A DNA stretch of 64,000 nt. Origin: Alphaproteobacteria bacterium. GTDB taxonomy: Bacteria > Pseudomonadota > Alphaproteobacteria > Bin95. The stretch lies in contig OZ219786.1 of NCBI GenBank assembly GCA_964291285.2, positions 416,001 through 480,000 of the forward strand, in the 5' to 3' direction. A program made the translations under genes and the position numbers. Shown one piece after another: positions 6,760-60,997 of the stretch; position 1 is the stretch's first letter, and each line of letters begins with the position of its first letter. The notes beneath the pieces are model-generated. The model did not search any database and was not told the origin of the DNA. It worked only from the letters and a program-made list of their open reading frames with translations.

Positions 6760-7605
6760 GCGGGCGTGACGCTTGCGCCTGACCAGCTCCTCGATGTGTT
6801 CGGGGTTCTCGATGCGGGCCGCCTTGTCGAAGCTGCGCGGATGGCGGGCGATGACCTCCATGCCGTCGAGGATGCGCACCTCTTCCAGCGTCGCGGCCAC
6901 GGTGAGGGTACGCCGCACATGGGTATGCGGGACGCTGTGCGGGACGCTGTACTCATTTTTGTCGAAGCGGGCGTAGGGGGTCTTGGCGATCCTGACCTCG
7001 CCCCTCTCGTCGACGGGGAAGCGGTCGTCGGGCAGCGCCATCAGGGAGCCGCGCTCGCGCTCGAAGGCCTCGCTCACGGTGAGGGAGCGGTCGTCCGGCC
7101 AGGGGCGGTCGGCGGCGACGCCCTCGCACCACTCCCGGGCCTGGGCGTTGAGATCGTCGAGGTCACGCCAGGCGCGGGCGGCGAAGAAGCTGTCGCGCAC
7201 ATAGCGTATGGCGCGCTCGACGCGCCCTTTTTCGTTGCCTCGGGCGACCGCGACCGGCTTCGGCAGGAAGCGGTAGGCGCCTGCGAAGTCGAGAAGCCGG
7301 GGATTGAAGCGGATGGCGTCGCCGCGCCGCTCCAGCACGACGCTCTTCAAATTGTCGTACCAGAGCTCGGGGAGCACGCCCTGCCAGGCCTCGAAGGCCT
7401 CGACATGGCCGCGCAGGAAGTTGTCCGTCCCGGCGTTGAGGTGGAAGCGCAGAAAGAGGCGGCGCGAGTGGCCGAGCACCATCACGAAGGCCATCAGCGG
7501 GCGCTCCGCACGCCCGATCCTCACCTTGCCGAAGTGGACCCGGTCGACCTGGGCCTGCTCGCCGGGCAGAGCCTTGAGGCGCAGACAGGCCTCGGCCACC
7601 GGGCC
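6760..7605 (-). pseudogene. istA: IS21 transposase IstA core, deleted at both ends; istB absent
   Basis: [30 protein letters not shown] motifs. Confidence 0.85.
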
Positions 7606-7624
7606 CGGCCGCTGCAGTTCCGCG

Positions 7625-7866
7625 AACAGTAGATGTTGCCGTGGTCGCAGCGCCGGCAAAGAACCACCTGGCGACCGCACGAGGCACAGTTGAACAGGCG
7701 GGCAGCGTTCCTCATCGCGACCGATGAGAACGGGCTGGACCCCCGCAAAAACCCGCACGATACTGTGCATACGGGCCATGCCCCGCATGGCTCGGGGGAT
7801 GCGGCGCCGGTCGTTGCCTCCTAGCAAACGGGGCCGGCGCCGCATCGTTCTCACCGGACCGAGTCT
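7625..7866 (-). repeat. Diverged duplicate (copy at about 9843-10087) encoding a Cys-rich ORF fragment upstream of istA
   Basis: Both copies read [30 protein letters not shown]. Confidence 0.7.
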
Positions 7867-8069
7867 ACTCCCGCCGATCCCGCTGTCAGGGTCGAGTGAC
7901 CGTCAAAGGCGTGCCGCACGCCCGCTATGGATAACCAGCCCGCCGCCGCCAGACTCCTCGACGGTCGCTGCGGCGGGCTGGTTACCCACAGCTCCGCCGA
8001 AGAATGCCTCCAACAACAGACCGCTGGATACGGCGGTGACGTCATCACCTGCCGACTTCAGCAAATAAA

Positions 8070-14277: not shown

Positions 14278-14505
14278 ATGAGCACCATCTCCTTTCGCCG
14301 CATCGCCCCCGACGAATCCCGCATCTACCGGGACGGCGACCATGTCGGCGACATCCACGCCTTCGACGACAGCATCCGGCCGGGGCGCAGGGTGTTCGCC
14401 ATACATCTCGACGAGGACCCGCGCGGGCCGGTGTATCTCCACGACCGCACCCGCATCCGCGAGACCGCCCGGCAGCGGGTCGACTCCCATCCCCTGTGGG
14501 GTTGA
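14278..14505 (+). CDS. Hypothetical protein (75 aa)
   Basis: RBS GGAG; MSTISFRRIAPDESRIY...; coding-like codon usage. Confidence 0.6.
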   Translation: MSTISFRRIAPDESRIYRDGDHVGDIHAFDDSIRPGRRVFAIHLDEDPRGPVYLHDRTRIRETARQRVDSHPLWG

Positions 14506-14897
14506 CGCAAGGGCGGGCAACGGCGCCTCCCGCTCCGGCGCCGTGCCGGCCGAACCGCCGATGGGGTCCGTGCAGGGCGAGAGAAATACGCCACCCCGCT
14601 GTGATCTCCAATCGTGTCACACGTGCTCCCTCCGCCAACCCCGCCGCAGGCGGGGTCCTCCACTCCGCTCGCGCTCCGTTCCGGCCGGGACTCGGAATGA
14701 AACGGCGCAAGCGCCTGGGCCTGACGGCATGCGCGACCGTGGCTCCGCACTCGCTGCGCTCGCTTGTGCGCCCGCACCACTCGCGCATCCCGCCAGGCCG
14801 TTCATTCCGGCCCCGGTGGCTGCGGTCCGCGCGCGTGTCCCGACAGGACATCACAACGGGGATCGGCCCCGAACGTGAAAACCGAAAGGAAAACGAC

Positions 14898-48681: not shown

Positions 48682-49389
48682 ATGCCATGCCTTTTCCGAC
48701 GCCTCGCCTCCGTTCTCGCCGCAGCCGCGCTGCTTGCCTTCGCCCTGCCGGCTGAAGCCGAAACCCTCACCGGCAAGGCCCGGGTCGTGGACGGCGACAC
48801 GCTTGCCGTGCAGGGCCGGCGTGTGCGCCTTCACGGGATCGACGCGCCGGAGGCCCGCCAGACCTGCTCGCGCGGCGGGCGCCGATGGGCCTGCGGGCGG
48901 GCGGCGACGCGGGCGATGCGCAGGCTCGTCGGGCGGAACCCGGTCCGCTGCGAGGTCCGGGACCGCGACCGCTACGGGCGCGCGGTCGCGGCCTGCTTCG
49001 CGGCCGGGCGGGACGTGCAGCAGGACCTCGTGCGCCAGGGCCTGGCGCTGGCATACCGGCGCTGGTCGATGCGGTATGTCCCGGACGAGGACGCGGCCCG
49101 CGCCGGGCGGCTCGGCCTGTGGTCCGGCGACTTCACCACGCCCTGGCGCTGGCGCAGGCAGGACCGGAACCGCCGGGCGGAGATACACCGGCGGCACGGG
49201 GCCGGCCCTCCCCCGCAGACGGGTTCCTCCTGCCTCATCAAGGGCAACATCTCGCGGCACGGGCGCATCTACCATGTGCCCGGGGCCGAGCATTACGACC
49301 GGACCCGCATAAACACCTCGAAGGGCGAGCGCTGGTTCTGCAGCGAGGCGGACGCCCGGGCCGCCGGATGGCGCCGGGCGCGGCGATGA
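48682..49389 (+). CDS. Secreted thermonuclease (SNase) family protein
   Basis: Signal peptide; VVDGDT, RLHGIDAPE, DRYGR; C-terminal IKGNIS...YH...ERWFCSE. Confidence 0.9.
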   Translation: MPCLFRRLASVLAAAALLAFALPAEAETLTGKARVVDGDTLAVQGRRVRLHGIDAPEARQTCSRGGRRWACGRAATRAMRRLVGRNPVRCEVRDRDRYGRAVAACFAAGRDVQQDLVRQGLALAYRRWSMRYVPDEDAARAGRLGLWSGDFTTPWRWRRQDRNRRAEIHRRHGAGPPPQTGSSCLIKGNISRHGRIYHVPGAEHYDRTRINTSKGERWFCSEADARAAGWRRARR

Positions 49390-49493
49390 CGGCGACCGGC
49401 CGGTTGTCCGCCGGGAGCGGAAGCCGTCCCGGTTGCGGCGGCGGGGCGCCCGTTGCCAGAGTGTGCGGCCATCCGACACCCGAAGGACCGGCC

Positions 49494-51077
49494 ATGAACG
49501 GACCGTCCGGCGCCATCGCGCGCTTCGCGATCTATGCGCGCTACTCCTCGCCCCTGCAGGAGATGACCTCGATCGCGGGCCAGCTGCGCCTGTGCCGCGA
49601 CCGCGTCGCCGCACTTGGCGGCGTGATCGCGGGGGAATACACCGATCCGGAACTCACCGGCGCGGCCATGCAGCTGCGCCCGGGGCTTCGCCGTCTGCTC
49701 GACGACGCCCGGGCGCGCCGGTTCGACGGCGTCTGCGTCGAGGGTCTGGACCGGCTCGCCAGGAGCACCGCCGACATGGCGTGGCTCTACCGCGAACTGC
49801 GGTTTCTGGGGATCAATCTGTACAGCCTGGAGGACGGTCGGGTCGACTCCCTCCATGCGCACATCAAGGGGGTTGTGAGCGAGATGGTCATCGACAATAT
49901 CGGCGCCAAGACGCGCCGGGGGCAGATCGAAGCCCTCCACGACCTGCGAATGATCGGCTCCTGCATATACGGCTACAGGATAGCCAACTACATCTCCGAG
50001 AGCGGCAAGCCCGTCCGGGGCCAGCGCACGATCGACCCCGACGAGGCCGGGACGGTCCGGCGCATCTACCGGCTCTATCTCGACGGCATGAGCCCGCAGC
50101 AGATTGCCGTGCTGCTCAACCGGGAAGGCGTGGCCGGGCCCGGCGGCAAGCCCTGGACCGCTGGCGCCGTGCGCGGCCGGGAAGGAAGCGGCGTGCTGCG
50201 CAACGACATATACTGCGGGCGGCTTGTCTACGGGCGCACCCGCAGCCGGCGTCACCCGGGCACCGGGCGGCGCCATTTCGTTGCCGTCCCCCGCGAGGAA
50301 TGGACCGTCGTGGAAGCCCCCGAACTGCGAATCGTGGACGACACGGCCTGGCAGGCCGTCCAGGACGAGGTCGGGCGCCGCAGGAACCGCCACCACACCG
50401 TGGTGACCCGCTACCGCAAGGCGGCCTATCCGCTGACGGCGCGGGTCCGCTGCGGCGTTTGCGGCGAGCGCATGACGATCGCCGGGATGGGCTACTACCG
50501 CTGCCTCGCCCGCCGGCGCGACCCGGACAGCTGCACCAACAACCGCGGGATCCGGCTGGACATGCTGGAAGACCTTGGCGTGCGGCGGCTCTTCGCCTGG
50601 ATGCTGTCGCGCGAGCGCGACTGGCGCGGCCTGTTCGCCGCCGCCGAACGCGGGACCGCGGTCCGGCGCGAGGAACTCCGGGAGAGGGCCGGGGCCGCCG
50701 GCGCCGGGATCTCCCGCCTGGTTGCCGCGATCGAGAGCGGCATCCCCTCGACGGGCATCGGCGAGCGCCTGCTGGCCCTCGAGCGCGCGCGCAACGAGGC
50801 GCTTGCCGAACTGGAGCGGCTGCCGGGACCGCCGCCGCCCGCGGGCTTCAGCGTGGAGAAGTTCATGCGCGACCGGGTCGCCGGGCTCCGGCGCGCCGTC
50901 GCGGGCGGCGCGCGGGCCGGGCGGCGCGAGCAGGCCCTGCTCGCCATCCGGGACCTGGTCGCCCGGATCGAGGTCCGCCCGTCAAAGGGCCGCGGACGCG
51001 TCGAGGTGGAGACGGTTCCCGACATTGCGGCGATCCTCGAGCTGATCTCGCGCCATGCCGCAGACGAGGGCGCATGA
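49494..51077 (+). CDS. Large serine recombinase
   Basis: IYARYSS, RPGL, LDRLAR, YGY, recombinase domain, CGVCG...YYRC...C zinc ribbon, coiled coil. Confidence 0.92.
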   Translation: MNGPSGAIARFAIYARYSSPLQEMTSIAGQLRLCRDRVAALGGVIAGEYTDPELTGAAMQLRPGLRRLLDDARARRFDGVCVEGLDRLARSTADMAWLYRELRFLGINLYSLEDGRVDSLHAHIKGVVSEMVIDNIGAKTRRGQIEALHDLRMIGSCIYGYRIANYISESGKPVRGQRTIDPDEAGTVRRIYRLYLDGMSPQQIAVLLNREGVAGPGGKPWTAGAVRGREGSGVLRNDIYCGRLVYGRTRSRRHPGTGRRHFVAVPREEWTVVEAPELRIVDDTAWQAVQDEVGRRRNRHHTVVTRYRKAAYPLTARVRCGVCGERMTIAGMGYYRCLARRRDPDSCTNNRGIRLDMLEDLGVRRLFAWMLSRERDWRGLFAAAERGTAVRREELRERAGAAGAGISRLVAAIESGIPSTGIGERLLALERARNEALAELERLPGPPPPAGFSVEKFMRDRVAGLRRAVAGGARAGRREQALLAIRDLVARIEVRPSKGRGRVEVETVPDIAAILELISRHAADEGA

Positions 51078-51583: not shown

Positions 51584-52600
51584 TTGCCCTCCGATCCGAC
51601 AACCCACAGCCTGAAGGAACTGTCCGCCCTGCTCGCGGCCGATATCGAGGCGGTCTGCCGCCACTACCTTCCGAACGGCAGGCGCAACGGCAACTTCTGG
51701 CAGGTGGGCAGCACGGCCGGCGAGGAGGGCGCCTCGCTGCGGGTGAACCTCGCCGGACGCTGGCGCGGCTACTGGAGGGACTGGGCGAGCCCGAAGGACC
51801 GGGGCAGCCCGCTGGACCTGATCCGCGCCGTCCGCAGCCTCGCCACGATCGGCGAGGCGGCCGACGAGGCGCGCCGCTTCCTCGCCCTGCCGGAGTATGA
51901 GCGCCCCCGCCGGCAGGACGGCGCGCCGCCGGAGAGGCAGAGGGGACTCGAACGGGTTCTCGAGGGCGCGGCGCCGGTCCGGCCCGACGATCCGGCCGGG
52001 CGCTATCTGGCCTCCCGCGGCCTGGCCCCGGAGGCCGCCCATGCCGCAGGCCTCCGGTTCCGCCCCGATGTCTGGGTGCAGGTGGACGGCGGGAAGCGCG
52101 AGCTGCCGGCCCTGCTCGCGCCGGTCCGCGCCCTTGACGGCACGCTGGAGGGCCTGCAGCGAATATTCCTGACCGGCGAGGGGCGCAAGGCCCCGATCGA
52201 GGGGCCGAAGCGCACCAGCGGGCGCCTATCTACGGGCGCCGTCTGGTGGCCGGCGGACGACGCGCGCCGCCTGGTGCTGACCGAGGGCGTCGAGGACGCG
52301 CTCGCCATGGCGGGGGCGCTCGGCGCGGGCGGGCGCCGGGATATCGCCGTTGCCGCCGCGCTCTCCGCCGGGCGCGTCCACCGCGTCGGCCTGCCCGCGG
52401 GCGTCCGGCGCGCGACCCTCGTCCAGGACCGCGACCCGGCGGGCGAGAGCGCCTGGGTCGCGCTCTGCCGGGAGCATGCCGGTTCCGCCATGCTGCTCGA
52501 CCGGATCGTCCCCCGCGCGAAGGACGCCAATGACGAGCTGCTGGCGCTCGGGCCCGCCCGGTTCCGCGCCTGGCTCGCGGCCAGCGGACTGTTCGACTGA
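51584..52600 (+). CDS. Toprim-domain primase-like protein, copy 1
   Basis: YLPNG...WQVG, RYLASRGL, LQRIFL, TEGVEDAL, QDRD, KDAND. Confidence 0.85.
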   Translation: MPSDPTTHSLKELSALLAADIEAVCRHYLPNGRRNGNFWQVGSTAGEEGASLRVNLAGRWRGYWRDWASPKDRGSPLDLIRAVRSLATIGEAADEARRFLALPEYERPRRQDGAPPERQRGLERVLEGAAPVRPDDPAGRYLASRGLAPEAAHAAGLRFRPDVWVQVDGGKRELPALLAPVRALDGTLEGLQRIFLTGEGRKAPIEGPKRTSGRLSTGAVWWPADDARRLVLTEGVEDALAMAGALGAGGRRDIAVAAALSAGRVHRVGLPAGVRRATLVQDRDPAGESAWVALCREHAGSAMLLDRIVPRAKDANDELLALGPARFRAWLAASGLFD

Positions 52601-52769
52601 CAGGCGGGCGGCAGCGCCGCGGCCGCGAAGTCCGGAGCCTCCCCGCCGGCGCGTCGGTTCCCGGTCCGGCGCCGGAAGGTCGGGAAGGGGTTGGTCGGGG
52701 TATCGATGCGCGCGGCTTGCCTTCGGCGCGTTCCGATCCCATACTCCCCGACAGACAGGAGACGAGGCC

Positions 52770-53312
52770 ATGACCTCTCCCGATACCACCCCCCCGGCCC
52801 CGCAGCGCGGCATTTTCGTCGTTGGCGACGGCAGCTGGAAGGCGATCCTGCCCTCCGCCACCGTGCTGGGCGTCTTCCTGGCCTTTCTGGTCGGCATGCT
52901 GGCCTGGTTCGACATCCGGATCGACGGAGTCGAACGGCGGCTCACCGCTCAGATCGGCGGGGTGAAAACGGATCTGGTGAACCGGATCGATCAGGTCGAG
53001 ACTGGCCTCAACGCCCGGATCGACGGTGTCGAGAAGCGGATCGACCGGGTGGAAAAGCGCCTGACCGACCGGATCGACGAGGTGAAGGTGGAACTCGGCC
53101 GCCGGATTGACGGGGTGAAGTCGGACCTTGCGGCGGGCGAGGCGAAGCGCGAGGCAGCGGAGGCGCGGCAGTCGGCCGCCATGGAGCGCCTGACCTCCGG
53201 CATCGCCGAAAACCGCGCCAACCATCGCGAGCTTCTCGGCTTCGTTCGCGCCCGTTTCCCCGGGGCGCCGCAACCGGCGCCTGCCGCCCCGGAGCCCTCT
53301 CCGGCGCAGTAG
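52770..53312 (+). CDS. Membrane-anchored coiled-coil protein
   Basis: One TM helix followed by RIDxVE repeats. Confidence 0.75.
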   Translation: MTSPDTTPPAPQRGIFVVGDGSWKAILPSATVLGVFLAFLVGMLAWFDIRIDGVERRLTAQIGGVKTDLVNRIDQVETGLNARIDGVEKRIDRVEKRLTDRIDEVKVELGRRIDGVKSDLAAGEAKREAAEARQSAAMERLTSGIAENRANHRELLGFVRARFPGAPQPAPAAPEPSPAQ

Positions 53313-53621
53313 CCGGGTCTCCGCCGGCGCCGTTCCCGCCCCTCCCCGGCGACAGGCCGGGGAGGGTTTTTTCATGGCGGCCTGCCCGCGGCATCGATCC
53401 GCCATCGGGCTTTCCGCCGGCATCCCGGCTGCCATCTCCCGCAATCCGCCCCCGGCGTTCCGGGCCGTTGCGGCCTCCCCTGTGCGACCGGCTGCCGTTT
53501 CCCGGCGGGCGGCGTTGCCGGCCTGCCGTCCGAAAGGTCGGGAAGGGGTTTTCGGTGCGATTCCCGCGGGCGGCCGTCCGACCGGCTCCCGCGCCCGTTT
53601 CCCGAACAGGAGAAATCGCAC

Positions 53622-53933
53622 ATGAGCGCTGCCAATGCGTCCGTCCTTCGCCCCGATGCGAACACCTTCCTCACGCACGTCTTCGGCCGCGGCCTGCAGG
53701 ACAGGCACTATGTGGTCGAGCGCTACCGCACGACGATCGACGGCGAGATCCGCCGGCTGCCGGGCGGCAAGGGCCACCCGCTCACCCTGTCGCTGGCGAC
53801 CGTGCGCGCGCTGCGTCCGGCGCGCAACGAGATCCTGATCTGCAAGGGCGAGAAGACCGCCGGCTCCGGCATCCAGTACTGGGGCGACCTGGCGACCGGC
53901 CTCTTCGCCGAGGCCCGGCGCAAGCGGTCCTGA
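53622..53933 (+). CDS. Unknown protein family X, copy 3
   Basis: RBS CAGGAG; paralogue of 28596-28910. Confidence 0.8.
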   Translation: MSAANASVLRPDANTFLTHVFGRGLQDRHYVVERYRTTIDGEIRRLPGGKGHPLTLSLATVRALRPARNEILICKGEKTAGSGIQYWGDLATGLFAEARRKRS

Positions 53934-54014
53934 GCCGGTCCTTCGGGCGGCGCTCCTCCGGGGGCGCCGCGCGGCCCGCTCCCCTTCCATCGTTCCGTTC
54001 CACGGGGTATTGCC

Positions 54015-54230
54015 ATGACCTGCACCGCCCGCGCGCCGGACGATTGCGCCAGTCGGCCGGGCCTCGCCCCCCGCAAGCGCAATGCCCGCCTGGCTGCCGG
54101 CCTCTGCGGCAGTTGCGGCAACCGCGCGCCCGAAGAGGGCCGCACGTCCTGCCGTCCCTGTCTGGACATCCACAACGAAAAAGACCGGCGCCGGAGGCGG
54201 CGCCGCTCCCTCCTGCGACTGTGCCTGCTC
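54015..54230 (+). pseudogene. Truncated CxxC repeat gene (one unit) fused onto the ssb leader
   Basis: GLCGSCG...SCRPC...RRSLLRLCL matches the start of 55005, then switches to the leader repeat. Confidence 0.7.
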
Positions 54231-54335
54231 CTCCTTCCCGGCCTTCGGCGGCATCGACGCCGCAAAGGTCGGGAAGGGGCTTTTCGCGGTGAGTTGCAAC
54301 AGCTCGCAATCAACCTCCTGCAGGGAGCAAACGCC

Positions 54336-54749
54336 ATGAACGGCCTCAATCGCGTCGACCTGATCGGCAACCTGGGCGGCGACCCCGAGTTCCGCAGCCT
54401 GCCCGGCGGCGGCGACGTCGCCAATTTCTCCCTCGCCACCAACACGGTCTACAAGGACCGCCAGAGCGGCGAGTATGTCGAGCGGACCGAGTGGCACCGG
54501 ATCGCCGTCTACCAGGACGGCCTGGTGAAGATGCTGCGCAAGCACGCCGCCAAGGGCCGCCTGGCGCACATCACCGGGATGCTGCGCACCCGGAGCTGGC
54601 GCAAGGACGGCGAGGACAGCGACCGGTTCGCCACCGAGATCGTCGTCGGCCCGCGCGGCTGCATCAACTTCCTCGACAGGAAGCCGGACGGCGGCGGCAA
54701 CCGGCCGCCGGCGCCGCCCCCGGAAGCCTACGAGGACTTCTCCGCCTGA
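54336..54749 (+). CDS. ssb: Single-stranded DNA-binding protein lacking the DDIPF tail
   Basis: MNGLNRVDLIGNLGGDPE, TEWHRI. Confidence 0.93.
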   Translation: MNGLNRVDLIGNLGGDPEFRSLPGGGDVANFSLATNTVYKDRQSGEYVERTEWHRIAVYQDGLVKMLRKHAAKGRLAHITGMLRTRSWRKDGEDSDRFATEIVVGPRGCINFLDRKPDGGGNRPPAPPPEAYEDFSA

Positions 54750-55004
54750 TGGCGCGCCCTCCGCCCCGGAGCCTGCGGGTTCCGGGGCTTTTCCGTTTTC
54801 CCCTCGCATGCCGTCCCGGGGCGGGGAACCCGTCTGTCTTCGCCGGCGCCATTGCTCTCCGCCGGCCACCGCTCCCGCGGCGGCGCTCCTTGCAGCCCCA
54901 AGGTCGGGAAGGGGTTTGCAGCGTGAGTCCTGCGCCCGGCCGTCCGATCGGCTTCCCCCCGTTCGGCCCGGGCCGCGCCCGCTACCGACACGCCGGGAGC
55001 CGCG

Positions 55005-56216
55005 ATGACCAGCAAACCGCATCCACCCGCCGACACCGGGAACCCTGTCCGCCGCAGCGACCGGACGCGCAACGCGCGCCGGGCGGCGGGCCTGTGTTCC
55101 CATTGCGGCGACCGTCCGCCCGAGGCCGGCCGCGTGAACTGCCGCCCCTGCCTCGACGCAGCCCGTGAGGGCAACCGGCGCCGGAAGCTTCGCCGCTCCC
55201 TGCTGCGCCTGTGCCTCGATTGCGGCATGACGCCCCCGGCGCCCGGGCGGCGCCGCTGCAAGCCCTGCGGCGACATCCACGCCCGCCGGACGCGGGACAT
55301 GCTCCGCGCCCGCCGCGCCGAACGCGCGTCGAAGGGGCTGTGTCCGCGATGCGGCGACCGGCCGCCGGCTCCGGATCGTTCCGCGTGCCAGCCGTGTCTC
55401 GACAACCGGAAGAAATACGACCGCAAGACCCGCGTCCCCCGGGAGAAACGCCGCTTCTGCCAGGGCTGCGGCATCCCGGTGCTGCAAGCGGGGATCCGGC
55501 TGTGCCCGGACTGCTCCGAAGACCGCCCCCGCAAGCTCGCCGAACAGCGCGCCACGGCCGGGCTCTGCAAGAGATGCGGCAATACCCCGGCGCTTCCCGA
55601 ATTCGACACCTGCGAAAGCTGTCGTCAGCACGACCGGCTGACCTCGCTTCGCAACTGGCGCCGCCGGTCGGCCCGCAGAAGGGCAGCCGGCCTCTGCGTC
55701 CGCTGCGGCGAACGGCCCCCGTTTCCGGACAGCCCCTATTGCGCCCCTTGCCGGGACCGGCGCCGCAAGCAAAGCCTCGCCGGATACCACCGCATGGCAG
55801 CCGCGCGCCGCGCCCGGGGGCTCTGCACGCGTTGCGGCGATACCCCGGCGCTTCCCGAATTCGACACCTGCGAAAGCTGCCGGCAGCACACCCGGCTGAC
55901 CTCGCTTCGCAACTGGCGCCGCCGGTCCGCCCGCAGAAGGGCCGCCGGCCTCTGCGTCCGCTGCGGCGAACGGCCCCCGGAACGCGGCACGCTGGACTGC
56001 GGGCCGTGCCGGGACAGGCAGCGCTCCCGTGAGTATCGCGGCATGCCCGATCTGCCGTCCCGGTACACCGTGATCGAGATCGCGACCGGTACCGATCACG
56101 GCACCTGGGACACCTTGCAGGAACTCGCGGCCGCACTCGCCTATGCAAAGCTCACGCTCGAGGATGTCGAGATCGTCACCGACGCCGCCCCCATGGCCCG
56201 CTTCGCCAGCTGGTGA
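55005..56216 (+). CDS. CxxC-x11-CxxC repeat protein, copy 3 (8 units)
   Basis: Repeat units, an internal duplication at 258-bp offset, and the conserved C-terminal domain. Confidence 0.85.
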   Translation: MTSKPHPPADTGNPVRRSDRTRNARRAAGLCSHCGDRPPEAGRVNCRPCLDAAREGNRRRKLRRSLLRLCLDCGMTPPAPGRRRCKPCGDIHARRTRDMLRARRAERASKGLCPRCGDRPPAPDRSACQPCLDNRKKYDRKTRVPREKRRFCQGCGIPVLQAGIRLCPDCSEDRPRKLAEQRATAGLCKRCGNTPALPEFDTCESCRQHDRLTSLRNWRRRSARRRAAGLCVRCGERPPFPDSPYCAPCRDRRRKQSLAGYHRMAAARRARGLCTRCGDTPALPEFDTCESCRQHTRLTSLRNWRRRSARRRAAGLCVRCGERPPERGTLDCGPCRDRQRSREYRGMPDLPSRYTVIEIATGTDHGTWDTLQELAAALAYAKLTLEDVEIVTDAAPMARFASW

Positions 56217-56262
56217 TGCTGTCACCCACCCCGGAACCTTCGGGTTCCGGGGTTTCTTCGTT

Positions 56263-56974
56263 CCCCCGTTCAGCGCCCCGAGGCTCCGGCCCGGGGCGTT
56301 TCTCGTTGCCCCGTGCCGGCCGTCCCCGCTGCCGGCGGCCCGGAACGGTTCCGCGGCGGCCGGCCGTTGCCACGGTCCCGGCGCCGTGCCGGCCGCGAGG
56401 CAGGAAAGGCGGGGAAGGGCTTGTCCGGGCAGTATTGCGGGCCTCGCTCCGGCGTCCCGCCGTGCTACAATCCCCCACCGAAAGGAGCGGCACCATGACC
56501 GCAGCCGAACTCGCCCCATGGGCGACGCCCGCGATCACCATCGCGCTCATCGCCTGGCTCCGCATGGACCTCGGCAAGCGCATCGACCGGCTTGACCAGC
56601 GCATGGACCGGCTTGACCAGCGCATGGACGGCTTCGATCAGCGCCTGCGCGCCCTGGAGGTCGCCGTCAGCGCCATGGCGGCCAAGCTCGACCTGCTCGA
56701 GCGCTACTTCCTGAGGCGGAACGCCCCCGACAGCGGCCCGCCGCCGGCCGCCGCCGAATAGCCGTCCCCCCGACCCCGGCCTCCGCGCCGGGGTTTTTCC
56801 TTGCCCCCGTTCAGCGCCCCGAGGCTCCGGCCCGGGGCGTTTTTCGTTGCCCCGTGCCGGGCCGTCCCCGCTGCCGGGCGGCCCGGAACGGTTCCGCGGC
56901 GGCCGGCCGTTGCCCCATGGCCCGGCGCCGTGCCGGCCGCAAGGCAGGAAAGGCGGGGAAGGGGTTGTCCGGGC
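56263..56974 (+). repeat. About 170-bp direct repeats (56263-56430, 56804-56974) flanking one small gene
   Basis: Near-identical CCCCCGTTCAGCGCCCCGAGG...GGGGAAGGGSTTGTCCGGGC. Confidence 0.9.
56495..56761 (+). CDS. Small membrane-anchored coiled-coil protein
   Basis: RBS AAAGGAG; hydrophobic N-terminus; RIDRLDQ/RMDRLDQ heptads. Confidence 0.75.
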   Translation: MTAAELAPWATPAITIALIAWLRMDLGKRIDRLDQRMDRLDQRMDGFDQRLRALEVAVSAMAAKLDLLERYFLRRNAPDSGPPPAAAE

Positions 56975-57024
56975 GGAATCGCGGCCATCCCGGTCCGCGA
57001 CCGCGAACCGAGAGGATTTAGGAC

Positions 57025-57201
57025 ATGACCGCCCTTCTGGACCCCGCCTTCGACGCGCTCGACGCCCGCCACGCCGTTGCCGAGCTCGGCCTCGATGCGC
57101 TCCCCCTCCGCGACAGCGTCCTGGAGGACAGCCTGCCCCGCTGGGGAGACCAGGCGACACTGTTCCCCTGGGAGCCCGACCACGCCGGAGACGCCGGCTG
57201 A
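57025..57201 (+). CDS. Small acidic protein (58 aa, not in the ORF track)
   Basis: Leader repeat, GAGGA/AGGA RBS, MTALLDPAFDALDARH...EPDHAGDAG*. Confidence 0.55.
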   Translation: MTALLDPAFDALDARHAVAELGLDALPLRDSVLEDSLPRWGDQATLFPWEPDHAGDAG

Positions 57202-57458
57202 TCCGATCGCCCCGATGCCCCCCGGCGTCGGGGCGATCGTTCTGTACCTGCCCTCCGCCGCGCGCGCCCGATCGGGGGCGGAGGCAGCCGGAGGCGTGGA
57301 GCCGGGCCGGGACAGGGAGGCGGGCGCTCGCGGCCATGCTCCCGGCGCCGTGCCGGCCGCGAGGCACGAAAGGCCGGGAAGGGGTTGGTCGGGGCGATAT
57401 CGGGGCTGACGCCCGCCAGGCGCGGCTCCGGAACCCCGGCCCGGAAGGAGGATCGGAC

Positions 57459-58487
57459 ATGGCTGCGATGCATGGAGGGATTTCGCTGCAGGAGCTGGCG
57501 GCGCGGCTGGCGGGGGAGATCGAGGCGGTCTGCGCCTGCTATCTGCCGAACGGGCGGCGCGAGGGCCCGTTCTGGCAGGTGGGCAGCGTCGCGGGCGAGC
57601 CGGGCAGTTCGCTGCGCGTCAACCTGGAGGGCCGCCTGCGCGGGCGCTGGAAGGACTGGGCGAACGGCCGCGACCGCGGCGACGCGCTGGACCTGATCCG
57701 CGCGGCCCGCGACCTGGGCTCGATCGGGGAGGCCGCGCGCGAGGCCCGGCGCTTCCTGGCCCTGCCCGCCGCCGAGCGCCCGGCGCCGCCGGTGTCCGCC
57801 GCGGCCTGCCGGCCGGTGAGCAGCGCCGGCCTGGAGACGGTGCTGGCCCGTTCGCGCGCGGTCCGCAGCGACGACCCGGCCGGGCGCTATCTGGCCTCGC
57901 GCGGGCTGTCGGCGGAGGACGCGCGGGAGGCCGGCCTGCGGTTCCGCCCCGACGCCTGGGTGCAGGTGGACGGGCGGAGGCGGGAGCTGCCGGCCCTGCT
58001 GGCGCCCGTCCGCGCGCCGGACGGCACGCTGGAGGGGCTGCAGCGGATCTTCGTCGCCCCGGATGGCGGCAAGGCCCGGATCGCGGACCCGAAGCGCACC
58101 AGCGGGCGGCTGTTCTCCGGCGCCGTGCGGTGGTCCGCTTCCGCCGGCGCGCGGCATGCGGTGCTGACCGAGGGCGTGGAGGACGCGCTCGCGGTCTGCC
58201 GGGCGCTCGGACCGGAGGGCCGCCGCCACGTCGCCATCGCGGCCGCCGTGTCCGCCGGGCGCATCCACCGGGTCGCCCTGCCGCCGGGCATCGAGCGCGT
58301 CACGCTGGTGCAGGACCGGGACCGCGCCGGCGAGGAGGCCTGGGCCGCGCTCCGCAAGGCGCACCGGGACACCGGGCTGCGGGTGGAGCGCATCGTCCCC
58401 GGCGCGAAGGACGCCAATGACGAGCTCCTCCGGCTCGGCCCGCCGGAATATCGCCGCCGGCTGCATGCCGCGGGATTGCCGGCTTGA
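57459..58487 (+). CDS. Toprim-domain primase-like protein, copy 2
   Basis: Paralogue of 51584-52600; RBS AAGGAGG. Confidence 0.85.
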   Translation: MAAMHGGISLQELAARLAGEIEAVCACYLPNGRREGPFWQVGSVAGEPGSSLRVNLEGRLRGRWKDWANGRDRGDALDLIRAARDLGSIGEAAREARRFLALPAAERPAPPVSAAACRPVSSAGLETVLARSRAVRSDDPAGRYLASRGLSAEDAREAGLRFRPDAWVQVDGRRRELPALLAPVRAPDGTLEGLQRIFVAPDGGKARIADPKRTSGRLFSGAVRWSASAGARHAVLTEGVEDALAVCRALGPEGRRHVAIAAAVSAGRIHRVALPPGIERVTLVQDRDRAGEEAWAALRKAHRDTGLRVERIVPGAKDANDELLRLGPPEYRRRLHAAGLPA

Positions 58488-58711
58488 GCCACGGATACCC
58501 GACGCCGTCCGGCGTCGGGTATCTCCCGCGTACCGGTGCGGGGCCTGGCGCCTTCCCGGCCTGGCCGGATGCGCCGGGAGAGCGCCTGCGGCGGGCGGCC
58601 GGGAAGGGAAAGGCGGGCGATAGCGGCCATGCTCCCGGCGCCGTGCCGGCCGCCAGGCGCGAAAGGCGGGGAAGGGGCCGATCGGGGCAAATCCCGAACA
58701 GGAGAGAGACG

Positions 58712-58969
58712 ATGAGCGCCGACGCTTGCTGGACCGTGGATATCCTGCTGCCCTGGTACACCGGAGGGACCCGCTGGCGGGTCACCCACTACGGCGAGAG
58801 CGAGCAGCTCGCGCGGCGCGTGCTGGCCGCCGAGCGCCGCGCGGGCCACCGGGCGCGCCTGCGCAGCTGGACGCCGGAGGTGGTCGACGCCGACGAGGAG
58901 TTCGACCTCGCCGAGGCGGCCCCGGCCCGCCAGCCGGAGGATGCGCTCCCGGACACGGTCCCGTTCTGA
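58712..58969 (+). CDS. Small protein with acidic tail ending DTVPF
   Basis: Leader repeat, RBS CAGGAG, downstream terminator. Confidence 0.65.
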   Translation: MSADACWTVDILLPWYTGGTRWRVTHYGESEQLARRVLAAERRAGHRARLRSWTPEVVDADEEFDLAEAAPARQPEDALPDTVPF

Positions 58970-59034
58970 TTCCCGGAGCCCCGGCGCCGCCCGCGCCGGG
59001 GCTTCTTCCCTGTACCGCTCCCGCCGTCCCGTAG

Positions 59035-59430
59035 CGGCCGCGAGACCGGCTCCGCTATCCGGAACCCTGCCAGGCCCTCCGCAGGCTCCGGCCCTGCCAG
59101 GAACCCGGAAGACTGCGCCTCGCAGGCCTGCCGGCGATGCCTGGAGCATAGCGCCAGGTCGCTTCGCTCCCGGGCCGGGAAGGAGGAAGACGGACGGTCG
59201 CGGCCATGCTCCCGGCGCCCTGAGGCGTCGGGCTTCCTTTCCGTACCGGCCTCCGACCCGGGCCGTTTCCCTTTCCCGGTCATGCGGCGATCCCTCGCCC
59301 GCTTCGCGTTCCTGCCCTCCCCGCATGACCCCTGGCGCCCGTACCGGCCGCGAGACCGGCTCCGCTATCCGGAACCCTGCCGGGCCCTCCGCAAGCTCCG
59401 GTTCCGGCAGGAACCCGGAAGACTACGCCT
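59035..59430 (+). repeat. About 85-bp direct repeats (59035-59120, 59345-59430)
   Basis: CGGCCGCGAGACCGGCTCCGCTATCCGGAACCCTGCC...AGGAACCCGGAAGACT. Confidence 0.85.
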
Positions 59431-59519
59431 CCGCGCCCCGCCGATTTCCGATCCCCCGGCTGCCCCGACGGTTGCCAGCTTCCGGATCGCGGCCTATCCT
59501 CATGGAACCGTGTTGAGGT

Positions 59520-59740
59520 CGCGGATCGGAGTCAGCACACCGGTGCCCCTGCGGTGCAAATAATAGCACGACGGAATACACAATGATTTCAACGGGTTAC
59601 GGATCGCCACGGCAGATGACGGCATCACGCGCGGAAGTGGGGCGCATGACCACAGCGGAGACTCTACCTGGCACCGCTCATTTGCGGGGTCATCCTGCTT
59701 TTTCCATGCGAGTCGAGCACGGACCCCAGAGGCTCTTCAG
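59520..59740. other. Candidate oriT region
   Basis: Lower-GC non-coding DNA upstream of the relaxase genes; IHF-like TTTCAACGGGTTA. The nic site was not identified. Confidence 0.4.
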
Positions 59741-60997
59741 GTGGTAGCGAGAATCAACAAGCTGGCCGACCCGGCCCTCTATACCAACCGCCAACGAGCC
59801 TACGCTGCCACATGGCGCAATCCGGCCGGTTTGCTGCATCTCCCGGACGGGGCGACGGTTCCCGACAAGGACTTGCTCGCCTTATGGAGGGGATTTGCAC
59901 CGCAGAACGCGGGCCCGCTTACCCGCAGGGCCATATCCGGGACACACACGCCCGGCTTCGATATCGTCCTCTCGCCCGACAAGTCGATTTCCGCGCTCTG
60001 GGCCACCTCTCCCGACTTCGACCGCAAGCGCATCGAGCGCGCGGTCATGGACGCCGCCAGGATCGCTCTCACCGCGATCGTCTTCCGCCACTGCGCCACC
60101 ACACGCATCGGGAGAGCAGCAAGCGGGCTTCGCGTCGAGACCGGCGACATCCTCGCCGCGATTGCCCCGTTTCACATTTCCCGCGAACTCGACCCCCAAC
60201 TGGACGTCAGCTGCGTCGTCTTCAATCTTGTCAGAACCCATTCAGACGGCCGCTTCCGTACCCTTCACGGCTATCCGCTGTATTCCTGGAAGAAGGCCAT
60301 CGGCGCCGCCTTCCGCAACCGCCTGGCCTGCCGGCTGCGCAGCCGCCTCGGGGTGGAGATCGAGCGTCACGGCGCGCATGGCGAATACACCCGCGTCCGC
60401 CGCATGGACCGCGGTCTCGAGGGACTCTGGAGCAAGCGTAATGCGAGGCTGCAAGCCCATGTCAACGCCGTTCACGCTGCCTGGAGGACACCCGATCCGG
60501 CCGCTTCCGGCGCCGGCGCGTCCACGACCGCTGCCCTGCGCCTCAAGCGAACGGCCACGGAAAGCGATATCGCGCGGTTCAGGGCCGAAGCAGCGGGGAT
60601 CGTCGATCCCGACGCCCTGCACGCGCGGATCGTCCGATCCTCCTTCAATGACGTAACCGAACAGGAGCGCGACAAGCTCCGCCGGGAGCTCGAGGACATT
60701 CCCCGCACTCTCGCCGCGGCGGACCTGGTCTTCAACACGGCCGATATCGTCACCCGTGTGGAGAACGCCGCCGCCGGCCTCTTCGACGACACTGCGATGG
60801 ATCAGTGGCTGGAATACGCCCTCTCCACCATCAACCTGCTCCCGCTTGAATACGACGACCCCAACCCGGACGCCGTCGCCGGCATGGCGCACAAGCGCCT
60901 GTTCACGACGCGCGACATCCTGGACGCCAATCCGGACCACAGGCGCCTCTCCGGACTGTCGGCGCAGGACCCGGCCAGGGAGCCGCCGCGGTGGTAG
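59741..60997 (+). CDS. MOBF/TrwC relaxase-domain paralogue lacking catalytic residues
   Basis: GFDIVLSPDKSISALWA is retained, but HISRELDPQLDVS replaces HxxSRxxDPQLHxH and there are no YY pairs. Confidence 0.8.
   Translation: MVARINKLADPALYTNRQRAYAATWRNPAGLLHLPDGATVPDKDLLALWRGFAPQNAGPLTRRAISGTHTPGFDIVLSPDKSISALWATSPDFDRKRIERAVMDAARIALTAIVFRHCATTRIGRAASGLRVETGDILAAIAPFHISRELDPQLDVSCVVFNLVRTHSDGRFRTLHGYPLYSWKKAIGAAFRNRLACRLRSRLGVEIERHGAHGEYTRVRRMDRGLEGLWSKRNARLQAHVNAVHAAWRTPDPAASGAGASTTAALRLKRTATESDIARFRAEAAGIVDPDALHARIVRSSFNDVTEQERDKLRRELEDIPRTLAAADLVFNTADIVTRVENAAAGLFDDTAMDQWLEYALSTINLLPLEYDDPNPDAVAGMAHKRLFTTRDILDANPDHRRLSGLSAQDPAREPPRW

Follow-up and report, generated by a model that had tools for sequence, protein, structure and literature searches.

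A short DNA word repeated ahead of single-gene units beside a MOBF relaxase gene: a candidate shared promoter and operator of a leading-region establishment regulon in uncultured Alphaproteobacteria

Analysis of a 64,000-nucleotide stretch of an alphaproteobacterial genome (assembly GCA_964291285.2, contig OZ219786.1, positions 416,001 to 480,000; the whole of this stretch is referred to as the window) identified a linear word of about 25 nt that recurs ahead of eleven genes, eight of them in an array lying beside a MOBF (TrwC) relaxase within a conjugative element. As proposed in an earlier sequence-only reading of the same DNA, the array is made up of single-gene units sharing one upstream element. 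The hairpin which that reading took for the defining part of the element is optional, the constant part being the linear word, and 72 of the 117 copies analyzed lack the hairpin's 5' arm. On balance the word probably represents the shared promoter/operator of a leading-region establishment regulon, sometimes fused to the terminator of the gene upstream, a reading that draws on the anatomy of the word, its position relative to genes and terminators and its distribution, and that is held with a confidence a little better than even.

Both strands of the window were searched with the pattern AARGNSGGGAAGGG, allowing up to one mismatch. Twelve matches were obtained, compared with a mean of 0.46 in shuffled sequence, and none of 100 shuffles reached 12. 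Eleven matches are on the + strand (27067, 28508, 29057, 52676, 53534, 54265, 54900, 56406, 56950, 57370 and 58663), confirming a repeated element ahead of the genes where the sequence-only reading had placed it; the lone - strand match (54232) is the 5' arm of the ssb hairpin described below, read backwards. In each of the 11 copies the start codon of the gene comes 43-99 nt after the first G of GGGAA. In Rfam the whole 64-kb window gave no match at the gathering score, while a search of 52000-60000 at E <= 1 returned one unrelated small RNA match (E 0.68) located inside a primase gene. The copies are listed here from -7 to +24 around the first G of GGGAAGGGG (52682 in copy 1), with the genes they precede, lengths being given in amino acids (aa).

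52675..52706, + strand: word copy 1, ahead of the membrane/coiled-coil protein gene 52770-53312 (+; array unit 1)
53533..53564, + strand: word copy 2, ahead of the 103-aa protein gene 53622-53933 (+; array unit 2)
54264..54295, + strand: word copy 3, ahead of ssb, 54336-54749 (+; array unit 3)
54899..54930, + strand: word copy 4, ahead of the zinc-ribbon gene 55005-56216 with nine CxxC...CxxC repeats (+; array unit 4)
56405..56436, + strand: word copy 5, ahead of the 88-aa protein gene 56495-56761 (+; array unit 5)
56949..56980, + strand: word copy 6, ahead of the 58-aa protein gene 57025-57201 (+; array unit 6)
57369..57400, + strand: word copy 7, ahead of the second primase gene (DUF7146 + Toprim) 57459-58487 (+; array unit 7; PHROG DNA primase, 3e-35)
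58662..58693, + strand: word copy 8, ahead of the 85-aa protein gene 58712-58969 (+; array unit 8), with 43 nt from first G to ATG
27066..27097, + strand: word copy 9, second module, ahead of the zinc-ribbon repeat gene 27158-28462 (+)
28507..28538, + strand: word copy 10, second module, ahead of the 103-aa paralogue 28596-28910 (+)
29056..29087, + strand: word copy 11, second module, ahead of the second ssb, 29128-29547 (+)

The last three copies belong to a second module of three units at 27-29.6 kb, encoding a zinc-ribbon protein, a 103-aa protein and an SSB.

To describe the anatomy of the word, the window was combined with 18 related stretches, giving 129 anchored copies, of which 117 are sense copies and 12 are 5' arms on the other strand. 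The constant part reads A-AAGG-T-S-GGGAAGGGG-YT-K-T-Y-C-GGG over approximately 25 nt and is followed by a short A/T island. Outside the letters fixed by the search pattern, conservation among the 117 sense copies was observed for A at -7 (71), T at -2 (106), G at +6 (105), G at +9 (115), T at +11 (101), T at +13 (87), C at +15 (79) and G at +16, +17 and +18 (98, 85 and 105), with a pyrimidine (Y) at +10. The island occupies +21 to +24 from the first G of GGGAA, with A/T fractions of 0.43, 0.79, 0.61 and 0.65 in DNA that is otherwise 70-90% G+C. In an expectation-maximization (EM) motif search of the sequence following the word, a wwTCSnGG-like motif came up at two offsets and no single clean box emerged, and therefore only the A/T island is described. 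The word is asymmetric, consisting of AAGG-N5-AAGG inside a G-rich run. Downstream of each of the 117 copies a start codon, accompanied by a ribosome-site-like word, lies 42-110 nt (median 70) from the first G and begins an open reading frame (ORF) with high G+C at third codon positions. The fixed spacing of word and island together with the variable distance to the start codon gives the element a promoter-like appearance. Upstream of the 85-aa gene the window and the related stretch L031 differ as far as the word, and everything from the word onward is kept; with only 43 nt between the word and the ATG, this indicates that the functional unit begins at the word.

The region 52000-60000 contains 14 terminator-like hairpins (3.6 in shuffles), 12 of them on the + strand, in accordance with the earlier observation that many of the genes end in terminators. 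Those after array genes include the following.

53340..53376, + strand: ordinary terminator-like hairpin with T run after gene 1
54763-54798, 56228-56263 and 56772-56805: similar terminator-like hairpins

Because the units end in terminators, each requires its own promoter, and the word is the sole conserved sequence between terminator and ribosome site. In 45 of the 117 copies, a 5' arm complementary to the word is present, the criterion being pairing of at least 12 of the 13 letters of GGNNGGGAAGGGG. None of these 45 copies has a separate terminator-like hairpin within 240 nt upstream, compared with 24 of the 72 copies lacking the arm (Fisher p 2e-6, a value that is overstated since the copies are related). 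The 8-nt tail contains on average 4.2 T in copies with the arm and 3.1 in those without. The distance to the upstream stop codon differs similarly, 18 of the 117 copies having been dropped from this analysis for want of an upstream ORF. The arm begins a median of 26 nt past the stop (n=44), and in hairpin copies the stop-to-word distance has a median of 54 nt; where the arm is missing, the word follows the stop at a median of 195 nt (n=55) and ordinary terminators separate the two. These positions are most simply read as showing that, once an arm is present, the word with its T-rich tail serves the preceding gene as terminator. An ORF at 54015-54335 codes for a single zinc-ribbon repeat and continues in frame through hairpin and word into ssb, and resembles the remnant of a zinc-ribbon gene severed at a cassette joint.

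Where the hairpin is present it is substantial, with stems of 18-22 bp and a predicted stability of -28 to -43 kcal/mol as RNA. With Watson-Crick pairs alone, at least 12 pairs over 15 letters were formed in 25 of 117 copies, and in none of 117 when the upstream sequence was shuffled. A covariance model built on 37 hairpin copies recovered 44 copies at 54.8 bits or more. In the structure-fitted alignment 87.4% of cells were paired, compared with 42-60% when partners were slid. Changes on both sides were seen in three of 20 pairs, mainly at one position (G-C 28, C-G 9, A-U 1), and the 19 compensatory cells were matched by none of 500 shuffles, indicating selection for pairing. This pairing is real yet modest and is confined to a subset of copies. 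Within the window three of the 11 copies score strongly with the model, six score weakly (24-29 bits) and two (54906 and 58669) are not detected at E <= 0.01; the strong copies are listed below.

54231..54279, + strand: ssb hairpin, whose 3' arm is word copy 3; model match 54228-54289, 83.6 bits
29024-29071, + strand: second ssb hairpin, at copy 11; model match 29021-29081, 71.9 bits
28469-28532, + strand: hairpin at copy 10; 54.8 bits

When 150-nt windows around the eight copies at 52.6-58.7 kb were folded, only the ssb copy was more stable than shuffled sequence, with z -4.0 for the - and -4.2 for the + strand; z for the remaining seven ranged from -1.2 to +1.7 over both strands and from -0.85 to +1.73 for the - strand alone. 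The conserved covarying hairpin of the sequence-only reading is thus upheld as a modest compensatory signal in some copies and fails as a general leader, given the 72 copies without an arm and the single array copy in eight that beats shuffles. Nor was a strand preference found, G.T pairs having been said to favor the + strand: among 37 clear hairpins from the window and its relatives the + strand was the more stable in only 20 with RNA and 22 with DNA parameters, and the ssb hairpin itself gave -38.6 kcal/mol as RNA on the + strand and -34.9 on the - strand. An inner stem-loop as a general feature was also considered. The 32 nt preceding AAGG in 58 copies that lack the long arm folded at a mean of -12.2 kcal/mol compared with -11.1 for mononucleotide shuffles (41 of 58 better), and the candidate was rejected as this slight signal was graded weak.

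In the genome the word with its flanks occurs in eight clusters only, all inside repeated mobile modules, the eight-unit array being present three times in full and once cut at a contig end and the three-unit module four times; other near-matches lack the flanks. Occurrence solely in mobile arrays shows that the word is not a repeat of the repetitive extragenic palindromic (REP) type scattered genome-wide. When 40 relatives were searched for an exact 17-nt version, this was present in 10 of 16 genomes of the same genus, nine of them with at least three copies. Copies in relatives always form same-strand arrays of 3-11, and a reversed control pattern gave 0-2 matches per genome. Across 37 genomes of the order, the word was found in those 10 of 16 and in none of 20 genomes of the two other genera; among the genomes covered, its occurrence is thus limited to a single genus of uncultured Alphaproteobacteria. 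Array copies head one-gene units, 8-12 per array, on a single strand and spaced about 0.4-1.7 kb apart. More distant relatives were reached via the 103-aa protein (19 loci), and in the 12 distant loci (48-63% identity in this protein) there was no array of the word. Here GGGAARGGG occurs 12 times on the gene strand, 10 of these in two conserved upstream positions, and once on the other strand, which is a hint only. In L057 and L059-L062, where the 103-aa protein is about 50% identical, it lies at approximately 7500-8000 (10400-10460 in L061) upstream of ssb, twice in each except L057 (once), with different flanks, and L059 and L060 have it once more ahead of a small gene.

All array genes are directed towards a non-coding stretch of 740 bases (59000-59740), beyond which lie two TrwC-domain relaxase genes.

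59535..59575: candidate nick region of the origin of transfer (oriT), a conserved heptamer beside an inverted repeat whose arms covary among relatives
59741..60997, + strand: short TrwC-domain (MobF) relaxase gene, 418 aa
60991..64000, + strand: start of the long TrwC relaxase-helicase gene, a 2115-codon ORF continuing past the window

The heptamer and covarying inverted repeat are common to five distinct sequences, in each case between the last unit and the relaxase genes. In MOBF systems the nick is located in the conserved flank, with the repeat bound by the relaxase on its 5' side along the strand that is transferred. Applied to the layout of repeat and flank here, this rule would make the - strand the transferred strand (T-strand), with the array entering first as template strand. 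Conservation among relatives and the MOBF rule therefore fit the array being a leading region with the T-strand as its probable template, in keeping with the previously proposed geometry in which the genes point to a candidate oriT with the relaxase beyond; the presumed nick position is that of 59535-59575. A plasmid search with the relaxase gave distant matches only, with no more than 28.5% identity over long stretches. The tandem pair of TrwC-domain genes (418 aa and a 2115-aa relaxase-helicase) is also present in L031, and in L032 tandem 11-nt units at approximately 14500-14700 take the place of part of the oriT-like region.

The gene content is of the establishment type, in keeping with the early-expression regulon that the sequence-only reading had suggested, with SSB and two primases in the window and, in a relative, a DNA polymerase III beta (sliding clamp) homologue as an extra array unit (L035 6980-8521). 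We infer from the arrangement of the units promoter activity of the word, a binding factor, induction on transfer and, for the hairpin copies, terminator activity. In the proposed mechanism the approximately 25-nt word, acting as double-stranded DNA, would with its A/T island form a promoter with an overlapping operator for every relaxase-adjacent transcription unit of this MOBF/type IVB conjugative element, each unit being laid out as word, short 5' untranslated region, ribosome site, one gene and terminator. A common factor, possibly an element-encoded repressor or activator, would switch on the whole set together, comprising SSB, primases, zinc-ribbon proteins and small unknown proteins. 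The most plausible trigger would be release of repression once the DNA enters a recipient without the factor. In about two fifths of copies a 5' arm able to pair with GGTSGGGAAGGGG would allow the terminator hairpin of the upstream gene to be built on the word, and the T-rich sequence that follows would then serve as the terminator tail.

Several observations weigh against this mechanism. No RNA run was listed for 52600-59700, the DNA of which is contained in three runs of one study. A sigma-70 consensus scan of 52000-60000 found no match at any of the eight copies, the sole match being at 59472-59500, and AGGTSG is a poor match at the place of the -35 hexamer, so that some other factor or sigma must be assumed. 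A conserved TACAAT lies approximately 55 nt after the word in the unit of the 88-aa gene and eight orthologues (nine copies) and may represent a second or alternative promoter; it corresponds to window 56466-56471 and to the orthologous copies in L031-L037 and L048, where the gene encodes 155 aa. The terminator tails are only moderately T-rich, and the compensatory change that fits a terminator would also fit a role of single-stranded DNA. No sigma factor or helix-turn-helix (HTH) match was found among the array genes with Pfam or NCBIfam, although no search was aimed at an ArdK homologue. The model of the 103-aa protein has no Foldseek match at E <= 0.001. This protein, the most conserved of the small proteins, was tried as a candidate regulator: its model is beta-rich with a predicted local distance difference test (pLDDT) score of 71.8, there was no Pfam, NCBIfam or PHROG match, no usable Atlas match and no informative PDB sequence match, and the candidate was rejected as none of the family, Atlas, PDB and Foldseek searches supported it.

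Four other explanations were weighed, namely a promoter on single-stranded DNA, an RNA element, a priming site and a recombination site. Jointly they amount to a serious prospect, though one well short of even. In the first, an Frpo-type promoter, an inverted repeat would fold on the entering T-strand so that the word becomes double-stranded and transcription begins before the complementary strand is made. The orientation of the genes towards the candidate oriT, with the T-strand as probable template, is as expected for this, and so are the 44 copies with long, compensated stems and their equal stability on - and + strands. Promoters of this kind are documented for F and ColIb-P9 in the available parts of two accounts (PMC9849209, PMC6294495), the former of which describes Frpo as a long stem-loop that rebuilds a double-stranded -35 and -10. 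The array shares with the Frpo/ssi systems of those plasmids, as far as those parts describe them, a leading-region position, a T-strand template and hairpin-forming repeats ahead of ssb and neighboring genes. It differs in that Frpo is present as one copy for several genes and the word as one copy per gene. The stem here covers the 13-20-nt G-rich word and excludes the A/T island, before which the arm ends, so that -35 and -10 are not both rebuilt and the hairpin cannot restore a promoter as Frpo does. Most copies have no arm at all, and in L031, checked copy by copy, these include the five nearest the relaxase, which would enter first. Seven of the eight array copies in the window fold no better than shuffles on the - strand. 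Furthermore, one stem position is occupied most often, in 33 of 39 cells, by a pair that is G.T on the + strand and becomes a C.A mismatch on the T-strand. The suggestion that the hairpin is a single-stranded DNA promoter was accordingly not borne out, by the copies without an arm, the exclusion of the island and the lack of a better-folding strand, and such a promoter is considered unlikely.

An explanation of similarly low probability is that the array is transcribed as one long operon, in which the word and hairpin act in the RNA as an attenuator, antitermination, processing or ribosome landing site. Read-through from upstream would be the simplest way of transcribing the word where it lies a median of 54 nt from the preceding stop, the hairpin with its T-rich tail resembles a terminator or attenuator, G.U pairs are tolerated on the sense strand and the word is purine-rich like a ribosome-binding site. 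A precedent is found in the pLS20 establishment operons, whose internal terminators and processive antitermination are described in the available part of PMC6294495. The absence of any relevant Rfam match is at odds with an RNA element, as are the seven array copies in the window without a stable fold and the linear word with its A/T island a fixed distance away, a feature for which an RNA leader would have no need. In addition, upstream sequence is not conserved where units have different neighbors, and known processive antitermination employs one loading site rather than one per gene.

A further reading beyond these four, with an equally small chance of being correct, is a word with two states. 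It would be an operator-controlled promoter in duplex DNA, would be read by primases or RNA polymerase on the entering single strand, and would also be a joint for exchange of units between elements. If so, the hairpin would help where present and each establishment gene would be primed and expressed singly on arrival; the array, in a lineage known from metagenomes alone, would be a self-contained establishment system that exchanges cassettes.

Less probable again is a priming signal (ssi) for the primases of the element, read on the T-strand for discontinuous synthesis of the complementary strand as the 5' end enters first. The two primase paralogues, SSB and the sliding-clamp homologue of L035 would suit this role, as would copies all on one strand at intervals of about 0.4-1.7 kb, and plasmid-specific primases of RSF1010 recognize hairpin sites. 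Such a signal leaves unexplained why the word follows terminators and lies 42-110 nt before a start codon in all 117 copies, and why 72 have no hairpin; moreover, the first primase gene and everything upstream of it are without the word.

The word is also where related arrays break and rejoin. In BLAST comparisons between eight arrays 159 of 501 segment ends fell within -50 to +30 of the word compared with 46.7 expected, a 3.4-fold enrichment with a peak at -20 to +20. The word itself contains one junction (L035 9639 versus L033 7908), and an extra unit in L032 relative to L031 has hairpin-plus-word on both sides. Unit content varies among relatives and gene order is largely conserved. As the word is the sole sequence common to the units, and the point at which arrays break and rejoin, the units behave as cassettes, and homologous recombination between the repeats is enough to explain the breakpoint pattern. 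A site-specific joint at which a recombinase inserts and excises cassettes, as at integron attC, would accord with the enrichment, with the break inside the word, with the differing unit content and with the large serine recombinase gene two to three genes upstream of the array (window, L031 and L035), and is nevertheless highly improbable, since ordinary recombination between homologous repeats of 25-60 nt leaves an identical pattern, intergenic DNA is where breakpoints are to be expected anyway, the word sits at the 5' end of units in fixed linkage to ribosome sites with most copies not being inverted repeats, gene order is largely kept and the recombinase is more simply the putative integrase of the element. 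Identity with integron attC itself, an imperfect inverted repeat closing each cassette at its 3' end, was rejected on the position of the word at the 5' end of units, its asymmetry in 72 of 117 copies and the type of the nearby recombinase, which is a large serine enzyme and not an IntI tyrosine recombinase.

Under the preferred reading, a shared promoter/operator, the closest known logic appears by analogy to be that of the conserved upstream (CUP) sequences of IncN plasmids, of which the array would be a variant. In the available part of PMC6289460, CUP sequences that bind ArdK are described upstream of ardB, ardK and repA, overlapping promoters and binding a plasmid-encoded regulator so as to form one regulon of establishment genes. 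The idea of such a regulon, presented in the sequence-only reading as undescribed, therefore has a precedent, at least as that part of PMC6289460 portrays it. As in IncN (pKM101/R46), a short sequence is repeated ahead of several leading-region genes, the likeness to this partial account being one of arrangement, the sequences not having been compared. The array differs from CUP in host lineage (uncultured Alphaproteobacteria), relaxase and mating system, in its 8-12 one-gene units each with its own terminator and in the doubling of the word as terminator 3' arm in about two fifths of copies. The word itself was not met in the literature on leading-region promoters, where no search was aimed at the sequence itself. 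Shared operators at many promoters also produce a burst of expression in a repressor-free cell in IncP (KorA/KorB) and IncW (ArdK/StbA) plasmids. Unlike the asymmetric word, the IncP and IncW operators are palindromic, and the proteins that bind them are known and of HTH or ParB type. The hairpin subset resembles intrinsic (Rho-independent) terminators in having a G+C-rich stem of 18-22 bp soon after a stop codon, a T-rich stretch and no other terminator nearby; it is distinguished from them by a 3' arm that is a conserved word, found elsewhere without a partner, and by a tail averaging 4.2 T in 8 nt.

Whether a conjugative element survives the first minutes after reaching a new cell depends on its leading region, and detailed knowledge of how such regions are controlled is limited to a few enterobacterial plasmids. 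The array would extend the same logic, one shared signal per early gene, to an unrelated lineage in a very regular form. The word offers a handle for finding establishment genes, mostly of unknown function, for fishing out the binding protein and for asking whether early expression depends on escape from a repressor or on single-stranded DNA. The array would also illustrate how a promoter word can be recruited as half of a neighboring terminator and how repeats become points of exchange between elements.

The window has a G+C content of 61-75% in 2-kb bins and sits on a 1.43-Mb contig of a genome of five contigs totaling 6.1 Mb. Annotation with Pfam, NCBIfam and PHROGs gave an order from 42 kb that begins with a DnaA_N-domain protein, ParA, DUF5131, an SNase-like nuclease, a large serine recombinase and a primase, followed by the array; the last two genes are located as follows.

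48885-51077: large serine recombinase gene
51584..52600, + strand: first primase paralogue (DUF7146 + Toprim), directly upstream of the array, with no word copy ahead of it

Further downstream of the relaxase genes are a resolvase, a coupling protein and Dot/Icm-like type IVB genes (DotI/IcmL, a DotB-type ATPase and DotD), indicating a complete conjugative element. In relatives the equivalent of 59000-59500, before oriT, holds a further unit consisting of the word and a gene of 114-127 aa, which tblastn did not detect in this genome; in the window this interval contains two direct repeats of approximately 60 nt near 59020 and 59340.

Both zinc-ribbon proteins of the window (55005-56216 and 27158-28462) are arginine-rich, with approximately nine CxxC...CxxC repeats and a C-terminal domain of approximately 60 aa. 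They gave at most a weak DksA-like or double-zinc-ribbon signal, and in the Atlas fall into unnamed or double-zinc-ribbon clusters. Their occurrence in every array and three-unit module makes them possible nucleic-acid binders. Converging on the three-unit module from the - strand, at 29748-31502, are overlapping ORFs with NikA-like ribbon-helix-helix matches and no adjoining relaxase. Between the two modules, 32596-39539 holds a defense-type cluster (DUF6088, AbiEii toxin, an SNF2-like helicase fragment and a Cas3 HD-helicase) amid many insertion sequence (IS) transposases.

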